The notes under the pieces: generated by a model
What the model was told of the DNA's origin: nothing
The model's input: the letters and a program-made list of their open reading frames with translations, nothing else
The model's database searches: none
Shown: positions 47,490 through 57,438 of the stretch, one piece after another
How positions within the stretch are numbered: position 1 is the stretch's first letter
Layout: every line of letters starts with the position of its first letter
Source: Escherichia coli
GTDB taxonomy: Bacteria > Pseudomonadota > Gammaproteobacteria > Enterobacterales > Enterobacteriaceae
DNA: 64,000 bases
Reading direction: 5' to 3' (one strand)
Assembly: GCF_003019035.1 (NCBI RefSeq)
Contig: NZ_CP027447.1
Position numbers and translations under genes: made by a program

Positions 47490-48242
47490 TTATCTCGTCA
47501 CCTTCCTCAATTGCGCTTCCGCGTATGCTTCTTCCTGCCAGCACTTTGTTACCAGTTTACCAATGACGTCCGCATACCCCTTATACCACTGATAATCGGT
47601 CAGGTCTGGTACCAGCTTCTGGACATGACGTCGTGCCAGCGTGGTCGGTAAACGACTAAACCGGTTTCCATTACAACGCCCACAAATCTTATATACCGGT
47701 ACGCCATGAAACCGGGTTCTTTTTTCATCCAGAACAATCCCTTTACCCTTACACCCTCTGCACGCTGTGCTGGCTTCGCCCTTACCATGGCAATGCTGAC
47801 ATAGTTCCTTCACCCATTCTTCCTTGATTACAGATTCCCCGCGTCTGTAGTGTTTCACCACTTCGCGCAATACATTATAAAATCCCGTACCTGAACAATG
47901 CTCACAGCGAGCCTTACTTGCCGCAGACCTGGAGTAATCAGCAAAGGCAAAACTCACGAGGTAAGGAATAATCTGTAACCGGATTTCTTCACTCAATTTG
48001 TTCAATGTCGGGTTATCCAGTGCCATCGCGTAATTTAGCAGGCCTTCAATCGCAAACTGAGGGTCCTGAACACCAACTTTTGCCAGAAATAAGGCCAACC
48101 CAAGTGGTGCTTTCGACTGCACCATCCCCTGCGCTGCCATTACATCCGTAATTGTTAAACAACCGGTGCCTGTCGCTGGAGCGTCATCGCTCAATTTTGG
48201 AGATTTTGGGGAGTAATATTTTGGTAAGGCTTCAAGGTTCAT
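47490..48242 (-). CDS. quuQ: Late gene antiterminator Q (QuuQ)
   Basis: ORF 47490..48272; from MNLEALPKYYSPKSPKLS the 250 aa protein matches recalled QuuQ; multiple CxxC zinc motifs. Confidence 0.85.
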   Translation of the reverse strand: MNLEALPKYYSPKSPKLSDDAPATGTGCLTITDVMAAQGMVQSKAPLGLALFLAKVGVQDPQFAIEGLLNYAMALDNPTLNKLSEEIRLQIIPYLVSFAFADYSRSAASKARCEHCSGTGFYNVLREVVKHYRRGESVIKEEWVKELCQHCHGKGEASTACRGCKGKGIVLDEKRTRFHGVPVYKICGRCNGNRFSRLPTTLARRHVQKLVPDLTDYQWYKGYADVIGKLVTKCWQEEAYAEAQLRKVTR

Positions 48243-48255
48243 GCTCGTTCTCCAC

Positions 48256-49344
48256 TTACGCCAGTACGCCAATTGTCAGCGCGCGATCGATAAAACGAAA
48301 TATCAGCTCCAGTTGGGAGCCATACTTATCTTCAAATGCCACTGTATCCGTATGCAGCTCGTTGTGATGCTTTCTGCACAAAGGCAACACAAAGAGATCA
48401 TGTGCTTTTGTTCCCATTCCGCCCTGCCCGTGACCAATCAGATGATGCGGATCGTCGGCTGGCATACCGCAGCAAGCACACGGCTGTGTCTTAACCCAAC
48501 GTGTGTATTTCTCCTTAACCCAGCGGCGACGTTTAGGCAGCTTCATGAAAGATTCCGGAGACTCTGGATCAACGGTGATGCTTACCACCGTCTTTTCCTG
48601 TGGTGATTTTTGTTGCTGGTGGGCGTAAGGCAACGGTGCAAGATTTTTTGTGCGTTGTTTCAATATGCTGGTGGCGGTCTGCTCTCCCGGTACGATGTCG
48701 CTTTCGCGGTACACCGAGCAGATTTTTTCCGCTGGTAATCCCAGCGAACGACGCGATACAGCCTCAGGTAGTGCATCCACCACCTGATTGCAGACCGCCC
48801 ACCAGGATAATTCAGCCAAAGATAATTCCCGCTCCTGCGTACCGCTTATTGCGTGACGGATGACGTCAATCACCCATGCTGTCAGATTTTGTTGAGCAAG
48901 CAGCTCCAGTGATTCCGATGTCTGGTCACGCAGTTGGTTGTCGCAGTGCCAGCACAACACCATTGCGCCGGTACCATAACGGTGAATGACTGTTTCAGTG
49001 TGATGGTAATCGCCATTAGGCCACTGGCAGGATGTAACATGACGTAATAGCCAGTCAGACAATGCGCCAACGCCGCCAGCAGCACGAATCACCCGTTCGT
49101 TACTAAAAAACGGCAGCAATGTTTTGTCTTCCGCCAGCGGCTGGCGAACGGCAGGAACGACTCCGGATGGCAGATTACGCATGCTTTTTGGTTCCGGTTC
49201 CACCAGCACTCGAGGATTATGAAATATCTGTATGGATTCACGGCCCGGCTTAAGGACCACCAGCCCAAGCTCAGGCACCAGAACAGGTCTAAGTAATACC
49301 CGCACGTTACCTCCAGATCCGTTGCTGGAAAGTGCGGGACGCAC
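48256..49344 (-). CDS. ydfU: Prophage protein YdfU (DUF968)
   Basis: 362 aa ORF; C-terminal CACCGMPADDPHHLIGHGQGGMGTKAHD cysteine/histidine cluster; start uncertain (overlaps the upstream 92 aa ORF). Confidence 0.7.
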   Translation of the reverse strand: MRPALSSNGSGGNVRVLLRPVLVPELGLVVLKPGRESIQIFHNPRVLVEPEPKSMRNLPSGVVPAVRQPLAEDKTLLPFFSNERVIRAAGGVGALSDWLLRHVTSCQWPNGDYHHTETVIHRYGTGAMVLCWHCDNQLRDQTSESLELLAQQNLTAWVIDVIRHAISGTQERELSLAELSWWAVCNQVVDALPEAVSRRSLGLPAEKICSVYRESDIVPGEQTATSILKQRTKNLAPLPYAHQQQKSPQEKTVVSITVDPESPESFMKLPKRRRWVKEKYTRWVKTQPCACCGMPADDPHHLIGHGQGGMGTKAHDLFVLPLCRKHHNELHTDTVAFEDKYGSQLELIFRFIDRALTIGVLA

Positions 49345-49585
49345 GTGGTGGGCGTTCGGAATAAGGCAGCCTGACAGAGATTATCCAGTGCCGATAGTCG
49401 AGACTGAGAGCTTTCTTAACCTCGAACCCGCGCCTGCGGTAAGAATGAATCAGCCATTCGGCCTGTTCTGCAGTGCATGGAGGGTGCTGGAACCATTCAG
49501 ACTTGAATGCGTGAGAATACCGCCCGTGCGTGCAGGCAAGAACGGGCGAATTATCAGAATTGTAATATTTTGCGTTGCGTGCCAT
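49307..49585 (-). CDS. Hypothetical protein overlapping the 5' end of ydfU
   Basis: 92 aa ORF in a different frame overlapping the first 13 codons of the ydfU ORF; could be a genuine small gene or the out-of-frame N-terminus of a longer DUF968 protein. Confidence 0.3.
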   Translation of the reverse strand: MARNAKYYNSDNSPVLACTHGRYSHAFKSEWFQHPPCTAEQAEWLIHSYRRRGFEVKKALSLDYRHWIISVRLPYSERPPRASRTFQQRIWR

Positions 49586-49651
49586 CGGTTTTCTCCGGTG
49601 GCACGGTGTTACTCAGCGGGAGTTCAGCCCCGCGCAAGATTGTAGATGAGT

Positions 49652-49903
49652 TTATTCTCCTGAAAAAGCAGAAAAGCCAGCTTTTATTCCGATCTCTTTC
49701 AATGCCTGTAATGAAGTGACAAACTCACCTTCGCGCAAGATAAATCCGTCCGTGACCCGAGCATCCACAAAATTAATTAACGCAGCCCCATTCTTTCGCA
49801 AACACATAATGCGGTAATGACTAACAAGATTTCCATTTTCAACGCACACAGCATAGAGGCCATCTTCACAAAAAATTTTACGCAGTTCTTCGATGTTCAT
49901 CAT
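49652..49903 (-). CDS. rem: Rem-like prophage protein (83 aa)
   Basis: 83 aa ORF located between ydfU and hokD, the position and length I recall for K-12 rem; assignment by position and length only. Confidence 0.45.
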   Translation of the reverse strand: MMNIEELRKIFCEDGLYAVCVENGNLVSHYRIMCLRKNGAALINFVDARVTDGFILREGEFVTSLQALKEIGIKAGFSAFSGE

Positions 49904-50019
49904 CAGAATCCTTCCGGATAATTAGCTCTCCCCTTTAAGGGACCATCCCTCTTATCCCTGCGCGCTACTTAAGTATTTTTGATTCTATTCCGGCACCGTC
50001 CAGAACTTCAAACGCGTTG

Positions 50020-50050
50020 AAAATAAAAACAAAAACCCGCCGAAGCGGGT
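50020..50050 (-). terminator. Rho-independent terminator after the relB-relE-hokD operon
   Basis: Minus strand acccgcttcggcgggt hairpin followed by tttttgtttttatttt. Confidence 0.5.
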
Positions 50051-50119
50051 TAAGTGCGGGTGCGTTGAGGATGCCTGCCACATCAGAGGTGGCGAGGGAT
50101 TTCTCCCCCGCCGGGTCTC

Positions 50120-50275
50120 TTACTCCTCAGGTTCGTAAGCTGTGAAGACAGCGACCTCCGTCTGGCCGGTTCGGATTCGTACCTCGCAGAGGTCTTTCCT
50201 CGTTACCAGTGCCGTCACTATGACGGTTAAACAGATGACGATCAGGGCGATTAACATCGCCTTTTGCTGCTTCAT
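50120..50275 (-). CDS. hokD: Hok-family type I toxin HokD (RelF)
   Basis: Hand-translated 51 aa: MKQQKAMLIALIVICLTVIVTALVTRKDLCEVRIRTGQTEVAVFTAYEPEE; absent from the ORF track because it is shorter than 60 aa. Confidence 0.85.
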   Translation of the reverse strand: MKQQKAMLIALIVICLTVIVTALVTRKDLCEVRIRTGQTEVAVFTAYEPEE

Positions 50276-51825: not shown

Positions 51826-53674
51826 AGTTAACATTACAAGATATAAGTAATGGACGCACTCCCAATTAGTCTATTTAAATCGCCACGAGTTTAACTGACA
51901 ACCCATGATCAATTATGAATTGCAACTATTTCTGTAGTCACTTTTGTGGGGACAGTCCACAAAACTGCCAACTTCCGCTTCTTGCTCTTAGCGGACATTA
52001 GCATAGGCTATTTACCATAACGCCTCATTACGCGCACCGCCCAGACTGACTCAGCGCGTTTCTGGCATATCCCCGGTAAAACAAGTAACAAACCACCCGA
52101 AAATGAACACCAGAAACGCGACTTAAGAATCTACCCTATGAATGGATATGCACTCAACCGAATCGATCTTGGTTTCAATCTTTTTTATCGGGATCAGGCT
52201 TCTTTTTAGGTAACTTCGGGGGCTTAACTTGCTGATGACTTTGCGTTCGGCGCGTAAGCCAGGGATGGTCAGCTTTAGGTTTAACATAGTATTTTGAGCG
52301 TAAATCAATACGGGCATTATCCACTCGTTCATGGACACTCTTTTCATCATCCAGTGGTATAGGCTCCGGGCCATCAACATACTTTTCCCAGCCCAGCGCT
52401 TTCCCGTCATACAGAACGTTAATTTCACCGTCAAAGTTCTCGCATACAGTAACAACCGAATGCCTAAGTCGATATCCCCGGCCCTCACTGCGTACCTGAA
52501 ACGCACTGCTTTTGTACTGGAAAGTGAGATTTTTAGACAGAACGCGCTTCGCCTGTAGGCTGAAGATATAACCCAGTTCCTCTTCAGAATGGTGCACATC
52601 AAGATGAGCATTATCAGTAGTACGAGGCGACGTAGCGAACCGGTTGTTATAGGCTTCAATAAAGGTCGGCAACCATGCATTTGCTGTTTCAATATCACTG
52701 ATATTCTGAAGCCGCATTTCTTTGACCAGCCTGTCCTGTAGTGTCTGATTGGCGCGCTCTACCCGCCCTTTTGCCTGCGGGCTGTTGGCATGGATTGGCT
52801 CGATGCCCAGTGTCTTTATCGCACGAGTGAACTGGGTCAGCTCACCTTCCCGCTCTGGGTTATTTACCCTGAATATACTGTGTCTATCAGAGTAGAGAGC
52901 GAGCGGTACGCCATGATCATTAAGGTAACCCCGGAGGGTTTCCATGTAAGCCCGGGTTGTTTCAGCAGGCACAAAACGCAACGCCATCAACGCACTGGTG
53001 GCATCATCAATGAAAACGATCAGTGTACATCTGGGGCCTCGATTTTCAAACCAGTCATGAGGTGAGCCATCAATCTGGATCAGTTCACCGTAAGATGGTC
53101 GTCGCATGCGGCGTTGATATATACGGGCAATTTTACGACGGCGTTCACGCCATAACCCCTCTTCTATCATCCACTTTCTGAGAGTTTCAACGGATAAAGA
53201 TAAACCGTGTATCTCGCGCAATTTTTCGCACGCAAACGTAGGTCCAAAATCAGCGTAACGGCCTTTGAGGAGTGAAATTACTGTTGCTCTGAATTCAGTA
53301 GAAAAGGAATTATTAGGACGCTTTCCACGTCGGTGGGAAACCAGACCAGAAGGCCCTTCATTTCTATACCGTTGCACCAGACGTTTAACCTGCCGAATAG
53401 AAATGCCAATGCGTGCCGCAGCTTGTTCCTGAATAATCTGAAGTCGGTGGAGTTCCTTATGACTCATCGTAACAGTCTCTTTGATCATGAAAAATCCCCC
53501 AGAGAATTGTCTGGGGACATTTTAGAATGGTTCAAAGGGGACATTACAGCTTGGTGTTAACAATAGCCTGCTTCTCCGTGCCTTTCGGCACGTAAGAGGC
53601 TAACCTACATGTGTCTAGCATGAAATTGGCCTCAGATTAATGTTAAGCGTCTTGCAGGACGCGTAATGTTAACT
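51826..53674. mobile_element. Insertion sequence (family uncertain, IS481/ISNCY-like); boundaries tentative
   Basis: Single 437 aa DDE transposase ORF flanked by a 12-bp perfect inverted repeat agttaacattac (51826-51837) / gtaatgttaact (53663-53674); no clear target-site duplication seen. Confidence 0.35.
52175..53488 (-). CDS. DDE transposase with N-terminal HTH and rve-type integrase core
   Basis: 437 aa; HTH near N-terminus (IGISIRQVKRLVQRY); catalytic-triad candidates in IQIDGS, YSDRHSIF and KGRVERANQTL. Confidence 0.8.
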   Translation of the reverse strand: MIKETVTMSHKELHRLQIIQEQAAARIGISIRQVKRLVQRYRNEGPSGLVSHRRGKRPNNSFSTEFRATVISLLKGRYADFGPTFACEKLREIHGLSLSVETLRKWMIEEGLWRERRRKIARIYQRRMRRPSYGELIQIDGSPHDWFENRGPRCTLIVFIDDATSALMALRFVPAETTRAYMETLRGYLNDHGVPLALYSDRHSIFRVNNPEREGELTQFTRAIKTLGIEPIHANSPQAKGRVERANQTLQDRLVKEMRLQNISDIETANAWLPTFIEAYNNRFATSPRTTDNAHLDVHHSEEELGYIFSLQAKRVLSKNLTFQYKSSAFQVRSEGRGYRLRHSVVTVCENFDGEINVLYDGKALGWEKYVDGPEPIPLDDEKSVHERVDNARIDLRSKYYVKPKADHPWLTRRTQSHQQVKPPKLPKKKPDPDKKD

Positions 53675-53822
53675 GGGGCTTTTCTCTATCTGCCGTTGGT
53701 GTCCATGCCCGAGGCAGATAGCCTCAAGCACCCGCAGTCATTCTACTTAACTAAGATTTCCCCGCAAACCGTTTTTGTCCAGCACAGTAAATATCCAACT
53801 AAACCAATGGAGTTCGCTGTAT

Positions 53823-54041
53823 TTACCGCCAGTATTCAATGCACATGACCGCCATGAACACCCCTAAAAAAAGGGCATTTATATATCCAAATATTAATAT
53901 CAAAACATCAACTTTTTCCATATACCTTGCTGTGAAGATGATGGGCATACATGATGCGAACAACCAGAACGCAACAAACAAAAACTGCAATGCGTTTTTC
54001 ATTATTCCTCCTACAATCAATGTGCAATTACATTTAAACAC
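53823..54041 (-). CDS. Hypothetical small membrane protein (two predicted TM helices)
   Basis: 72 aa ORF (likely start MKNALQFLFVAFWLFASCMPIIF...); AT-rich codon usage unlike the flanking phage genes. Confidence 0.4.
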   Translation of the reverse strand: MFKCNCTLIVGGIMKNALQFLFVAFWLFASCMPIIFTARYMEKVDVLILIFGYINALFLGVFMAVMCIEYWR

Positions 54042-54433
54042 ACCTCAATTTGGCCGGACATATAAATATCTAAACCAGAAAAAATCACTTACATAGCGTT
54101 ACAAACTCTTTAGTCTAAAGGTTCATCGTAAAACATTCCCCATACTTATCAGTCCGTTCCGCGCCAGGTAGCTCATTGCCTTATCTGGCAACCTGTAATC
54201 AGGTTTCCGCTTTTTCAGTTGGCTGGTCGTTTAACCGACATAGTTAATCCATTAATCTAGTTGCCGGATGTTGGTGGATTTTCGCGTTTTAGTTGTTCAT
54301 AAAAGTGCACAGCTTTAACCAGTTCTTCTGATGTAACTGGGACTGGTGAGGCAGTGAATAAGGCCTGAATTTGATAGTTCGGCCTGTCGTTACAATCCTC
54401 TTTTTTCGGTACATATTTCCAGTCACCAGACCA

Positions 54434-54892
54434 CTACTTCCCCTGAAAGTCCGTAACGCCTTTTTTCACGTAGCGATATCGCCATGCCACTGGTTTTGCT
54501 TGCCCCGCCGTTTCATGCCCTTCCTGATAATTAATCTCGCTCATTCATCGCCCCACTCATCACAATATGCTTCGACCGGAGTTTTTCCCGCTTCATAGTC
54601 ATCACGCTAGGATTCGACATCAGCAGCACTTCCACCGCGTAACTCACCATAGTCCATTAATAGTTCATCCCGCTCTTCAAAACTGATGTTATATTTAGCT
54701 GAACAAAAATCAGCCACTTTGTTCTTCCTCATCGTCTTTTATTTCGTGGTATGAGTAATTGCAGTAGTTAAAGAAAATTTCTTATGCTCCGTCATGAATT
54801 TCCTCAGGTGTTGCGTCATCGTCCACTTCGAATACATCCTCAAAATCTCCACCAGCTATTCCCGTTTCAATAATAATTTTGAACTTTCGCAT
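54434..54892 (-). other. Cluster of tiny overlapping ORFs (23-41 aa) in shifting frames; probably decayed gene(s)
   Basis: Hand translation gives 36, 41, 23 and 36 aa ORFs at 54782-54892, 54607-54732, 54531-54602 and 54434-54544; an alternative frame across the second gap reads protein-like DDYEAGKTPVEAYCDEWGDE; SD sequences are weak. Confidence 0.3.
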
Positions 54893-55154
54893 TTCACTAC
54901 CGCCCTTTCGGGCGGCCTCCTGATGTTCTGAGGGTGCAGAAATCCATCCGGTTAAGGATTAAATTTTATTTACAGAACTGAATTTAATTATTCAGATATA
55001 CGTATCTGTAGCCTTACGAATCTACTCACTGGATGCCTCTTTCATAAAAATAATCCAGTGGGTTTTATCGTTTTTTCCCTGTTCGTTGACAGATAACAGG
55101 TTTTCTGTCTGTCAGTGCCAGAATCTGGCTTACCGGTATTTGCGTTTCATTCCA

Positions 55155-55511
55155 TTAAAAAATCAGAACGCCGTGCGGCCTCAACACCCGAAAGGCTTCT
55201 TTAAATCTCTGTCGCGAATCATCACGCCAGGCATCTTTATTCAGCCGTCCATATTTCTTTCCCATCCAGGCGTTATCACCAACACTCTCAAGATGCGGAG
55301 GGTCTAATACAACCATCGAAAAAGATGCGTCTGCAAATGATAATGCACGAAAATCTGCGATAATGTCAGGGCTGATAATCAAGCGTCTCCCATTGCGTAA
55401 TGTGTATCCTTCTTTTCTGATATCGCTGAATATCGCCCGTTCGTCAGACTTATCGAACCAGAACATGCGGCTGCCACAGCACATATCAAGAATGGTTGCC
55501 GGTGCACTCAC
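55155..55511 (-). CDS. SAM-dependent methyltransferase-like protein (motif I and DPPH motif IV), possibly truncated
   Basis: 118 aa; ILDMCCGSR resembles SAM-binding motif I and VVLDPPH resembles the D/N-PP-Y/F/H motif IV of amino-methyltransferases; too short for a complete DNA MTase. Confidence 0.45.
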   Translation of the reverse strand: MSAPATILDMCCGSRMFWFDKSDERAIFSDIRKEGYTLRNGRRLIISPDIIADFRALSFADASFSMVVLDPPHLESVGDNAWMGKKYGRLNKDAWRDDSRQRFKEAFRVLRPHGVLIF

Positions 55512-55930
55512 TGCGCCACGTCCTGAAAATTACCCTGATAGAAAGCCAGTATGCGCTGCATAACTTCGCTCTTCCGGCACTCGCGACAGATTATGTTTAG
55601 GCGACTGTCGTAGCGACGTATTTCTCCGTCAGGTGATGACCAGATAAGGTCCGGATCAACCACAGCAGGTTTCTTCACCTTTGCCCTCGAGAGTTTTTTG
55701 CGGGCGTTTTGCCAGTCCTTACGCGCCTGTTCAGAGGGGAATAACCCGTAGCCGGAGTTGTATACATCGCCACTGGCTACCAGCTCTCTGGCAAGAACGC
55801 TCATCAGATATCTAGTCGCACCTGTTTTAGCTTCCAGTTGCCGTAACGTCTCACGGCCGCTCTGGCGCACGAGTTCCACCACCTGCCATTTAATTTTTTC
55901 CCGCTCTTCTTGTGTAAAAACTTTTGCCAC
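55508..55930 (-). CDS. Hypothetical protein (early-region, possible DNA-binding)
   Basis: 140 aa; basic; CRECR near C-terminus; stop overlaps the start of the methyltransferase-like ORF. Confidence 0.5.
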   Translation of the reverse strand: MAKVFTQEEREKIKWQVVELVRQSGRETLRQLEAKTGATRYLMSVLARELVASGDVYNSGYGLFPSEQARKDWQNARKKLSRAKVKKPAVVDPDLIWSSPDGEIRRYDSRLNIICRECRKSEVMQRILAFYQGNFQDVAQ

Positions 55931-55970
55931 AAGTCCCCCTTAAAATTACCTCATGACCTGAAATCAACAC

Positions 55971-56990
55971 TTATCCTCTGAAACCAGGCGGAATTTCTGT
56001 ATCCGGTTCAGAAATATGATTAACACAACGCTGTACAGGTGAACGTCCCAGGCGGATGACCAGTTCGTCCCATTTTTCGCGGAGCTTTGACGGGCTCATG
56101 ATGTTTTTTACCCAGAATGGATCTCGCTGAACCCGACCAAACATTTCGCAAATTTGTCTGTGGCTTCTGCCATCCAGCATCCGCATTGTGCGCACGTCAT
56201 TGGCCCAGGCAGTCCAGTTAGGCTCTTTTGGTCGCATGATCTCGCCATCATCACTGGCTGCCTGTTCGTAGAGACCCACGATCCGCCCCCAGATCCACTG
56301 CGCACACGCCAAATCCTCCCTGCTACCCCACTGGCGTTTTTTCGCACTAAACACAACCGCGTCGGAGTTCCGGGTTAAAAAATCCTGTTCAGTCGTCTGC
56401 GGGTCCGGTTGCGAAGCTTCCGGACGAAAAGTGTTTTTATTCTCTGTAGTAATCTCTGTTGTATTCTCTGTAAGATCATCAGGCCATTTTGACCCGATGA
56501 CATTGGGTCGTTTTGAACCAATGGAGCGTTTCATTTTGACCTCTTCCATCGTGTCATTTTGACCTGATGGAGCGGCGCATTTTGAACCGATGGATTCGCT
56601 CAATTTGCCACCATCTAAAAGCTCGCTCCCATAGTTGATCGTGTAGAAATTGGTCATATCGCGCTTTGATTTATTGAGCTTTTCACAACGCAAAAGCCCC
56701 AGCGTTTTCAGACTTGCAAACGCGCGCTTTAACGTTGACTCTGACCAGAATGGGAACTGTTCCAGCCATTGTTCCGTTGTGTTATAAATCCAGCGAACAC
56801 CATCACATTCCATGCCGGAGTTGGTATCTCTCAACCAGTAGTGCAGTTGTTGCAAAACAATGGCTTCGTTTAAGCCAATTTTCATTGCCAGCTGCGTGTT
56901 TATAACCAGTGGGCGTTCAGCAAAAAGAAGGCTCATAATTCCATCCAGCTTTTTGTTGGTATTGCTGTCGATACGCAAGTTTGAAAGCAA
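55971..56990 (-). CDS. Putative replication initiation protein (replisome-organiser-like)
   Basis: 339 aa ORF in the position of lambda O, downstream of the cro-like dicC; N-terminal winged-helix-like segment; start may be the internal MSLLFAERPLV. Confidence 0.45.
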   Translation of the reverse strand: MLSNLRIDSNTNKKLDGIMSLLFAERPLVINTQLAMKIGLNEAIVLQQLHYWLRDTNSGMECDGVRWIYNTTEQWLEQFPFWSESTLKRAFASLKTLGLLRCEKLNKSKRDMTNFYTINYGSELLDGGKLSESIGSKCAAPSGQNDTMEEVKMKRSIGSKRPNVIGSKWPDDLTENTTEITTENKNTFRPEASQPDPQTTEQDFLTRNSDAVVFSAKKRQWGSREDLACAQWIWGRIVGLYEQAASDDGEIMRPKEPNWTAWANDVRTMRMLDGRSHRQICEMFGRVQRDPFWVKNIMSPSKLREKWDELVIRLGRSPVQRCVNHISEPDTEIPPGFRG

Positions 56991-57438
56991 TTGCTTTTTC
57001 TATAAGTTCGTCAGTTTCACGATCCACTACGGCAGGATCAGCAAAAAGCAGTCCGGACTCCACCACATCGCCATATTCTTTGTTTAACCCGGCGATCATG
57101 CACGTGATGCTTTTTCCGTCAGTAATTTCACGATACAACCTGAAATCATTAATCCGGATAGCCTCCATAATTGCAGGCACTAGCGCCGTGAACTTTTCAC
57201 GCTTATCCCTGGTGTCGATAGCCTTCCAGCGTTCAAATATCTTCACTCGATTAACGCCAAGCGCTCGCTGATCAATCGCGCCACCTTCATATGTGACACG
57301 CTGAACATCGATGTTCGGGCGCTCTTTCAAAGCCCAGAATGCTTCAGTGATTAATATCGTCGCCTGCTCCTGTGTCATTCCTGGTCGACATATCCAGGCA
57401 TCCAGAGCCTCACGAGCCTGTTCAGGAGTGATTTTCAT
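56917..57438 (-). CDS. Hypothetical protein directly downstream of dicC
   Basis: 173 aa ORF overlapping the dicC stop and the next ORF; no motif recognised. Confidence 0.45.
   Translation of the reverse strand: MKITPEQAREALDAWICRPGMTQEQATILITEAFWALKERPNIDVQRVTYEGGAIDQRALGVNRVKIFERWKAIDTRDKREKFTALVPAIMEAIRINDFRLYREITDGKSITCMIAGLNKEYGDVVESGLLFADPAVVDRETDELIEKAIAFKLAYRQQYQQKAGWNYEPSFC

Follow-up and report, generated by a model that had tools for sequence, protein, structure and literature searches.

Proteins with the DUF968 domain (PF06147), YdfU among them, make up group 7 of the His-Me-finger (HNH) nucleases in the classification of Jablonska et al. 2017 (PMC5714182), and the Q and RusA-type neighbours of YdfU match the description given there. 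For the DUF968 proteins of Gram-positive bacteria, an Orf-like N-terminal domain has been proposed by Curtis et al. 2014 (PMC4118853). The nin regions of lambda and P22 contain a number of small ORFs (NinD, NinE, NinF, NinH, NinX and others), which are short genes between the replication genes and Q that abut recombination or nuclease genes (NinB/Orf, NinG/Rap, RusA) (PMC4118853). A further group of small proteins, PHROG 1212, has members about 66 aa long that include Gifsy-2 STM1021.1n, mEp237 gp51 and PY54 ORF47, with N15 Orf QD1 as a relative.

Here, we examine a prophage region of Escherichia coli in which a 92 aa ORF (ORF92) is found directly upstream of ydfU. ORF92 shares its niche and its position beside a nuclease gene with the small nin ORFs of lambda and P22, but no similarity to the Pfam Nin families was detected at E < 0.1. 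It matches the whole of the PHROG 1212 profile, and resembles the members of that group in its position in the nin region and in its tight junction with the gene that follows. However, it has a 26-residue N-terminal extension and is without the usual start codon of the family, and it adjoins the hok/rem module, where the PHROG 1212 relatives adjoin DUF1367 instead. It is separate from YdfU, sharing no homology with DUF968 proteins.

Structure of the rem–ydfU region

The window, a 64 000 nt stretch of E. coli DNA (NCBI RefSeq accession number NZ_CP027447.1), includes the distal part of the 'nin' region of a defective lambdoid prophage of the Qin type, in which rem, ORF92, ydfU and ydfT (Q) are all on the minus strand (Table 1). 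Between positions 49200 and 50000 it is base-for-base identical to E. coli K-12 MG1655. The genes found here are already known, and the locus is an ordinary one. The minus-strand ORF list includes ORF92 and an 83 aa ORF, both starting with ATG, and the longest ORF in the ydfU frame (positions 48256–49344, 362 aa) begins at the first possible start codon, a GTG. This ORF and ORF92 share 38 nt, or about 13 codons (49307–49344), in different frames. The first-pass annotation had reported both of the small ORFs and the out-of-frame overlap, all with coordinates that agree with the ORF list, and had assigned the 83 aa ORF to rem from its length and position, which proved correct. DNA identity shows the 83 aa ORF to be rem (b1561); the same DNA is annotated as rem in MG1655 (bases 1644651–1644902), and PGAP names the product 'protein Rem' (WP_000980994.1). 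Rem matched PHROG 340 (E 4e-21) and had a dN/dS of 0.24. Rem homologues carry a precomputed Pfam PF27490 label, and a Pfam scan of Rem itself gave no match.

Table 1. Features of the rem–ydfU region, with positions numbered from the first base of the window
Feature	Position	Strand	Details
ydfT (quuQ), Q-type antiterminator	47490..48242	-	Pfam Antiterm, E 4e-54; coordinates from PGAP
ydfU	48256..49305	-	349 aa; GTG start 49303-49305; DUF968 / His-Me-finger (HNH) domain in C-terminal half
Spurious 13-codon 5' extension, ydfU frame	49306..49344	-	Up to GTG 49342-49344; inside ORF92 3' end
ORF92	49307..49585	-	Protein-coding gene; PGAP hypothetical protein WP_012304870.1
ydfU Shine-Dalgarno GGAGG	49310..49314	-	Formed by TGG AGG, the final sense codons of ORF92; read from sequence
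ORF92 conserved 66 aa domain, codons 27-92	49310..49507	-	PHROG 1212 alignment, dN/dS, AlphaFold2
ORF92 N-terminal extension, codons 1-26	49508..49585	-	Lineage-specific; little constraint; low model confidence
ORF92 Shine-Dalgarno GGAG	49593..49596	-	7 nt 5' of ATG; read from sequence
rem (b1561)	49652..49903	-	83 aa; DNA identity to MG1655 rem
Intrinsic-terminator-like hairpin and T-run	50034..50051	-	Downstream of hokD, upstream of rem; consensus scan, pattern match only

We consider it very probable that the region has three ordinary protein-coding genes that are independent of each other, rem, ORF92 and ydfU, with ydfU starting from the GTG at 49305, abutting ORF92 and most likely translationally coupled to it.

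A scan for promoters and terminators gave numbers of matches close to the shuffled expectation. One promoter-like match, TTTTCA-16-TACAAT, was inside the 3' end of rem. The rem-ORF92-ydfU-ydfT block is bounded on its 5' side by the terminator-like hairpin, a pattern match only, and has ydfT as its final gene. A very strong Rho-dependent terminator has been reported upstream of ydfU in K-12 (PMC9160355), and the Qin genes here may therefore be silent in the lysogen. The excess of C over G in the mRNA strand of the ORF92 5' region was only modest, and composition was therefore not taken as a guide to the location of the Rho terminator reported for K-12.

Location of the ydfU start codon

A 349 aa YdfU with exactly these ends (48256 and 49305) is annotated both in MG1655 and by PGAP. 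The GTG start is 1 nt past the stop codon of ORF92 and 4 nt past the GGAGG, and this junction, GGAGG-TAA-C-GTG, was invariant in 81 related loci (...TGGAGGTAACGTG). If ydfU instead began at the upstream GTG (49342–49344), the product would be 362 aa and the 38 nt out-of-frame overlap with ORF92 would be a true one. The window has this upstream codon, as do about 45 of 80 related loci, but in the other 35 or so the whole 13-codon extension lacks any ATG, GTG or TTG, while the downstream GTG is always kept, with an intact ydfU of 348–352 aa that starts from it. The spacing of the GGAGG is also correct only for the downstream GTG, and the RefSeq start has been curated to give 349 aa. In the more distant homologues of YdfU from phage SfII and Vibrio phage Cla, the first residue aligns with that of the 349 aa YdfU, and the start codon is a GTG after GAGGTG in SfII and an ATG in Cla. 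Read-through of the 13-codon extension was found in one sequence only, P0121, which is a frameshifted fragment at the end of a contig. A start at the upstream GTG is highly improbable.

These comparisons indicate that the GTG at 49305 is the real start of ydfU, and that the 'overlap' arises only from extending the ORF to the first possible start codon. One of two possibilities raised in the first-pass annotation, a non-ATG start for ydfU at a more internal codon, is thus upheld by the invariant junction, by the MG1655 and PGAP annotations and by the SfII and Vibrio Cla starts. The later start fixes the N-terminus of YdfU at this GTG, as RefSeq annotates it.

Relationship of ORF92 to DUF968 proteins

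The second possibility was that a frameshift had split a longer ancestral DUF968 gene into ORF92 and ydfU, with ORF92 as the counterpart of the N-terminus of full-length DUF968 proteins. The two ORFs do abut and, if the longest ORF is used, overlap in different frames, and the frameshifted fragment P0121 runs from ORF92 into the ydfU frame. However, YdfU alone covers the PHROG 96 'HNH endonuclease' profile from end to end (residues 1–349 against profile positions 1–334, E 7e-171), and ORF92 belongs to a different family, PHROG 1212. YdfU also matched Pfam DUF968 (255.7 bits against a gathering cut-off of 27.8; E 2.9e-76), which makes it a putative nuclease of the DUF968/His-Me-finger (HNH) type; an Orf-like N-terminal domain was not detected by Pfam in its residues 1–162.

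When 1.84 billion representative proteins were searched using phmmer, an ORF92-like region was not found in any full-length DUF968 protein, and the only fusions were short products of a deletion or frameshift, confined to one or a few contigs. YdfU-length homologues with no counterpart to ORF92, named beforehand as evidence against a split, are found in SfII and Vibrio Cla, which have no match to the ORF92 family in any of the six frames. The ORF92 family is also found upstream of unrelated nucleases. For a split pseudogene, an intact single ORF would predominate in the relatives and the break would be specific to one lineage; here, the stop codon, the Shine-Dalgarno sequence and the GTG are kept in 81 of 81 loci. 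The split-gene explanation is refuted, and we give it next to no chance of being right.

Evidence that ORF92 is a gene

The overall dN/dS of ORF92 was 0.21, with 55 of the 110 variable sites at third codon positions, and was 0.10 for codons 27–92 and 1.29 for codons 1–26. The phmmer search recovered 60 cluster representatives, mostly of 66 aa, and 129 homologues were present in the protein collection. Using tblastn, matches were found in 59 phage records, as far as phages of Yersinia, Edwardsiella and Klebsiella, and distant homologues were 37–48 % identical to ORF92. The GGAG Shine-Dalgarno sequence is conserved as GGAGAA or GGAGGA in 79 of the upstream regions listed. Because there is purifying selection in its own frame and homologues are found in distant phages, ORF92 is, as judged from sequence comparison, a real and separate protein-coding gene.

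In the MG1655 reference record (GenBank accession number NC_000913.3), ydfU and rem are separated by an unannotated gap of 346 bp with DNA identical to the window; PGAP calls ORF92 as a hypothetical protein. It could be argued that MG1655 is right to have no CDS at this place, or that an antisense 137 aa ORF (49232–49645, plus strand), annotated in phage PhiR42_1, is the one that codes. Chance ORFs of such a size are common, with dozens of a size similar to ORF92 in 5 kb of the ORF list, and a length of 92 codons is by itself within chance expectation. However, purifying selection was found in the ORF92 frame only; in other open frames dN/dS was 1.5, which is the value for the antisense ORF, and this ORF had stop codons in 20 of 28 variants. 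The profile match to a phage protein family, the distant homologues and the confident domain fold in the model also make it extremely unlikely that ORF92 is not a gene. A literature search for WP_012304870 found nothing relevant.

Family and architecture of ORF92

Residues 27–92 of ORF92 align to positions 1–66 of the 66-position PHROG 1212 profile (E 1.7e-35), and the 66 aa homologues align to residues 28–92. The domain is predicted to have a beta-alpha-beta-beta arrangement (residues 28–75), followed by a conserved basic tail ending in W-R. In the AlphaFold2 model, pLDDT exceeded 90 over residues 31–70 and was below 50 over residues 1–9 and 14–24, and the N-terminal extension is probably disordered. 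The 66 aa relatives do not have the extension and start with a conserved M-K-K-x-W-F. At this point ORF92 has A-F-K-S-E-W-F, with no start codon, and it starts 26 codons upstream. On sequence grounds, ORF92 is a length variant of PHROG 1212.

There was no purifying selection on codons 1–26, and the extension is open with an ATG in 27 protein variants, with length changes that are in frame. The possibility that these codons are an untranslated leader was considered and rejected, since there is no other canonical in-frame start before the constrained domain; the extension is needed because the ATG at 49583–49585 is the sole canonical in-frame start. In the E. coli lineage, the ancestral start of the family appears to have been lost, and translation from an ATG 26 codons upstream would add a poorly constrained leader.

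ORF92 had no match in Pfam, NCBIfam or PADLOC, and sequence searches against the PDB gave chance-level matches only. When the predicted domain was compared to BFVD using Foldseek, there was no significant fold match, and the sole match, to N15 Orf QD1, was borderline, its E of 1.4e-3 falling slightly short of the 0.001 threshold, with 32 % identity. Viral contigs were scanned with single proteins of the family.

Association of rem with ORF92

Phage records ON470583 and PV340562 use the product names 'Antitoxin Rem' and 'toxin to Rem', which suggest that Rem and ORF92 might be a toxin-antitoxin pair. As in type II systems, two small genes are adjacent in one operon; rem and ORF92 are co-oriented, 66 nt apart, and located beside the hokD and relBE toxin systems. 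They are also found together in 74 of 81 closely related loci, but these loci were chosen for near-identity and this co-occurrence therefore reflects linkage, not independent association. Across independent lineages, the co-occurrence expected of type II partners was not seen. MN652886 has rem without any ORF92-family sequence, ON470583 and L086 have ORF92 without rem, and in 97 loci of the 66 aa family the upstream gene is DUF1367 or another. Neither protein resembled any known family of toxins or antitoxins, as no toxin, antitoxin or defence model in Pfam, NCBIfam or PADLOC was significant. PADLOC gave nothing for Rem or ORF92, NCBIfam gave nothing for ORF92, and the sole NCBIfam match of Rem was to SocB_toxin (14.9 against a cut-off of 210 bits). 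A literature search on 'toxin to Rem' and 'antitoxin Rem' found no paper making this claim. We consider it very unlikely that the two form such a pair, and treat rem and ORF92 as independent genes.

The ORF92–ydfU junction and downstream nuclease genes

In bacterial operons, translation is coupled by a geometry in which a stop codon closely precedes a start codon and the Shine-Dalgarno sequence is within the upstream coding sequence. The ORF92–ydfU pair appears to be of this kind. The ribosome-binding site of ydfU, GGAGG, is built from the final two sense codons of ORF92, and the TAA stop is one base before the GTG, so that the genes abut. Judged from the geometry of the junction, translational coupling of ORF92 and ydfU is most likely. 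Distant family members resemble coupled pairs in the same way, with TGG-GGG-TGA separated by 2 nt from the GTG or ATG that begins a RusA or YbcO-like gene.

Usually, only 0–2 nt separate a member of the family from a DNA nuclease gene downstream of it (RusA, NinG, YbcO-like or DUF968). The downstream gene was RusA in 83 loci, a YbcO-like gene in five, NinG in Gifsy-2 and an HNH gene in mEp237, and others were DUF968 again, in a lineage with 42 % identity, or an Rv2179c-like exonuclease; the spacing from stop to start is alike in these cases. In some lineages a PerC-like gene, YfdP or an unknown gene comes directly after the family member, so the association with nucleases is not universal, and it could merely be the conserved gene order of the nin region. 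Because most lineages place the family 0–2 nt before a DNA-processing nuclease gene, ORF92 probably has a role in the phage recombination and branch-processing module, and is probably produced along with the nuclease encoded downstream.

A more specific proposal is that the PHROG 1212 proteins are dedicated partners of phage DNA-branch or junction nucleases, serving to regulate or inhibit them or as a targeting subunit, and made at a fixed ratio via the stop/Shine-Dalgarno/start junction, with the basic C-terminal tail (…P-R-x5-Q-Q-R-I-W-R) as a docking motif. This is speculative and, in our judgement, rather unlikely. If true, it would explain why the family is directly 5' of non-homologous nucleases (RusA, NinG/Rap, YbcO, DUF968, Rv2179c-like). 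The recurrent tight placement before phage junction nucleases is a modest lead and not a discovery.

Implications for annotation

These findings matter mainly for annotation. Within the 346 bp gap in MG1655 there is a conserved gene, subject to purifying selection, that the NCBI pipeline annotates in other E. coli genomes. The annotation of these 600 bp in phage records takes at least four conflicting forms, with nothing, with ORF92, with the antisense ORF or with later ydfU starts. Placing the N-terminus of YdfU at the GTG and recognising ORF92 would allow clean constructs to be made for studies of YdfU, Rem and the Rho-silenced Qin genes.

The start of ydfU

The ORF list confirmed the two minus-strand ORFs upstream of ydfU seen in the first-pass annotation, one of 92 aa (ORF92) and one of 83 aa. 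The longest ORF in the ydfU frame shares 38 nt with ORF92 in different frames, its 362-aa length following from the convention of taking the first ATG/GTG/TTG after a stop as the start. Two explanations had been offered for this overlap: a non-ATG ydfU start further in, or a longer DUF968 gene split by a frameshift.

Coordinates of features at the ORF92 locus and elsewhere in the window
Feature	Coordinates	Strand	Remarks
ydfT, annotated	47490-48242	minus	250 aa; Q antiterminator
ydfT frame, ORF list	47490-48272	minus	260 aa; extended to TTG
Longest ydfU-frame ORF	48256-49344	minus	362 aa; DUF968 (Pfam E 2.9e-76)
ydfU start GTG	49303-49305	minus	349 aa from this start
Antisense ORF	49232-49645	plus	137 aa
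ORF92	49307-49585	minus	92 aa
ORF92 stop TAA	49307-49309	minus
ORF92 start ATG	49583-49585	minus	GGAG before, 7-nt spacing
Promoter-like match	49639-49666	minus	TTTTCA-16-TACAAT
rem	49652-49903	minus	83 aa
Window segment listed with locus L197 (hok/gef junction)	50120-50275
Block between ydfW and ydfX	52360-57158		about 4.8 kb
HTH + rve transposase-like ORF	52175-53488	minus	437 aa; ISNCY-family pseudogene in PGAP elsewhere

On the minus strand the junction reads ...ATC TGG AGG TAA C GTG CGG GTA..., so that a single base separates the ORF92 stop from a GTG, and the GGAGG four bases before this GTG comes from the final two sense codons of ORF92. RefSeq starts ydfU at this GTG both in MG1655 (NP_416078.4) and through PGAP. 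When the junction was compared across 81 loci (80 related loci from viral contigs and the window), all complete loci had GGAGG (AGGAGG in one), TAA, C and GTG. Only about 45 of the collected loci had the upstream GTG responsible for the overlap; about 35 had no ATG, GTG or TTG in the 25-codon open extension, and in these ydfU was intact from the conserved GTG (348-352 aa). The PHROG 96 profile ('HNH endonuclease', 334 positions) matched YdfU residues 1-349 from its own first position (E 7e-171). The homologue in Shigella phage SfII likewise has a GTG start, following GAGGTG (VRALLTPEIAPRMGIVLFRPG...), and the Vibrio phage Cla homologue has an ATG start that aligns to the same position. Together these observations place the ydfU start at 49305; the non-ATG start further in was thus correct and the overlap is not real. 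The ORF list similarly runs ydfT ten codons beyond the annotated gene, a second case of the 'first possible start' artefact.

The reading as a frameshift-split DUF968 gene is wrong. The YdfU-length genes of SfII (329 aa) and Cla (335 aa) are preceded by unrelated genes, and a six-frame family-HMM search of these two loci gave no match to the ORF92 family, so that YdfU-length proteins occur with no counterpart of ORF92, the outcome that the first-pass annotation had given as refuting. YdfU homologues were found in 174 phage records versus 59 for the ORF92 family. No ORF92-like region was detected in full-length DUF968 proteins by phmmer among 1.84 billion representative proteins, and no joined full-length protein was found. 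The few chimeras are all one-off deletion or frameshift products. Two proteins from other E. coli contigs (P0096 and P0097) have ORF92 residues 1-53 (...YRRRG) joined to C-terminal segments of YdfT or YdfU starting LP, which points to deletion having happened repeatedly in this block, at a short shared sequence, and P0121 is a frameshifted fragment at a contig end.

ORF92 as a gene

Among 28 distinct DNA variants, dN/dS was 0.21 in the ORF92 frame and about 1.5 in the other open frames over it, and third codon positions made up 55 of the 110 variable sites. ORF92 matched the entire profile of PHROG 1212 (66 positions, a family of unknown function; E 1.7e-35). In tblastn searches the family was found in 59 phage records, about 20 of them with full-length E. 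coli forms (75-99% identity) and the rest with 66-aa forms (30-48% identity), in phages of Salmonella (Gifsy-2), Klebsiella, Yersinia (PY54), Edwardsiella, Hafnia, Cronobacter and Erwinia. Exhaustive phmmer recovered only 60 relatives among the 1.84 billion representative proteins, most of 66 aa and aligned to residues 28-92. This frame-specific constraint, the profile match and the homologues together show that ORF92 is a real gene. It is already known to PGAP (WP_012304870.1), and at least 1000 contigs carry the identical protein, in every case under the name 'hypothetical' or 'prophage protein'; the MG1655 reference record leaves a 346-bp gap. For the 600 bp of this stretch, public records give at least four annotations that disagree with one another. 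Phage PhiR42_1 (PV340562) annotates the antisense ORF as a CDS, probably a mis-annotation because this ORF shows no purifying selection (dN/dS 1.5) and 20 of the 28 variants have stops within it.

Constraint is uneven along ORF92, with dN/dS of 0.10 for codons 27-92 and 1.29 for codons 1-26. The 66-aa relatives begin M-K-K-x-W-F where ORF92 has A-F-K-S-E-W-F. The ATG is the sole canonical in-frame start, is retained in 27 of 27 protein variants, and length variants (90 versus 92 aa) are in frame. As the constrained domain can only be translated from this ATG, residues 1-26 must be translated too and form a weakly constrained leader. An AlphaFold2 model (32-sequence alignment) agrees with this division, predicting residues 28-75 as beta-alpha-beta-beta (pLDDT >90), followed by a conserved basic tail ending Q-Q-R-I-W-R, and giving pLDDT <50 for residues 1-9 and 14-24. 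A 92-aa relative with only 45% identity to ORF92 (P0127, locus L197 on a contig of Logan ERR4188566) has a similar N-terminal extension, and its gene is directly downstream of a hok/gef gene with no rem between; the extended form may thus have arisen at a hok-module junction.

Neighbouring genes and expression

In the sampled loci the 66-aa gene lies in the nin region, commonly 3' of a DUF1367 (NinB-like) gene, with a DNA nuclease gene usually 0-2 nt downstream. RusA comes next in 83 of 97 viral loci, and again in a separate lineage that P0148 represents. Five loci have a YbcO-like His-Me-finger protein in this place, Gifsy-2 has NinG and mEp237 an HNH endonuclease; P0159 is followed by an Rv2179c-like exonuclease, and DUF968 recurs in a lineage only 42% identical (P0141). 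In other lineages the next gene is PerC-like, YfdP or unassigned. Nin regions are nuclease-rich in any case and the association is not universal, so a functional partnership with the downstream nuclease is proposed with low confidence only. The junction TGG-GGG-TGA, two bases, GTG or ATG recurs in the relatives, and the near-invariant C-terminal W-(G/R) codons thus also serve as the ribosome-binding site of the next gene.

The identification of the 83-aa ORF as rem (b1561), first made from length and position, was borne out by DNA identity to MG1655. rem is under purifying selection (dN/dS 0.24), and Rem matches PHROG 340, its homologues being labelled PF27490. The pair appears as 'Antitoxin Rem' and 'toxin to Rem' in two phage records; a literature search found no publication behind these names, and toxin, antitoxin and defence models gave no significant match to Rem or ORF92. 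The two genes do not co-occur beyond closely related loci, MN652886 having rem without ORF92 and ON470583 ORF92 without rem. G+C is about 0.38-0.44 in rem and about 0.50-0.61 in ORF92, which fits a mosaic origin of the adjoining genes.

A promoter-like match sits 54 nt 5' of the ORF92 ATG, inside the 3' end of rem, its TACAAT conserved in related loci (TATAAT in one). The total of promoter-like sites was near the shuffled expectation, so it does no more than hint at an internal promoter. A terminator-like hairpin is found 3' of hokD, directly upstream of rem, and a Rho-dependent terminator upstream of ydfU has been ranked among the strongest in K-12 (PMC9160355). This fits a block that is silenced in the lysogen and may also explain why no experiment ever picked up ORF92 in MG1655.

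Prophage setting

The region is a Qin-type defective lambdoid prophage of E. coli, with ydfT, ydfU, 'hypothetical protein', rem, hokD, relE and relB annotated on the window minus strand. Megablast found 48200-50000 in 4919 of 5426 complete E. coli genomes, the best matches being 99.9% identical. The window is identical base for base to K-12 MG1655 over 49200-50000 and is distinct from it by three ydfU substitutions, at 48276 (codon 344, Thr in the window, Ala in MG1655), 48680 (second position of codon 209) and 49057 (synonymous, TCT/TCC, Ser). MG1655 lacks the block between ydfW and ydfX, and the window's Qin copy thus retains an early-region block lost by that strain; besides the transposase-like ORF, it includes a DUF977 ORF, a 339-aa ORF without a Pfam match and a YdaT-like ORF.

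rem, ORF92 and ydfU are three separate ordinary prophage genes, and the stop/start junction between the last two is of the kind that would be expected for translational coupling. All three are already in public annotation, with the exception of the MG1655 reference.
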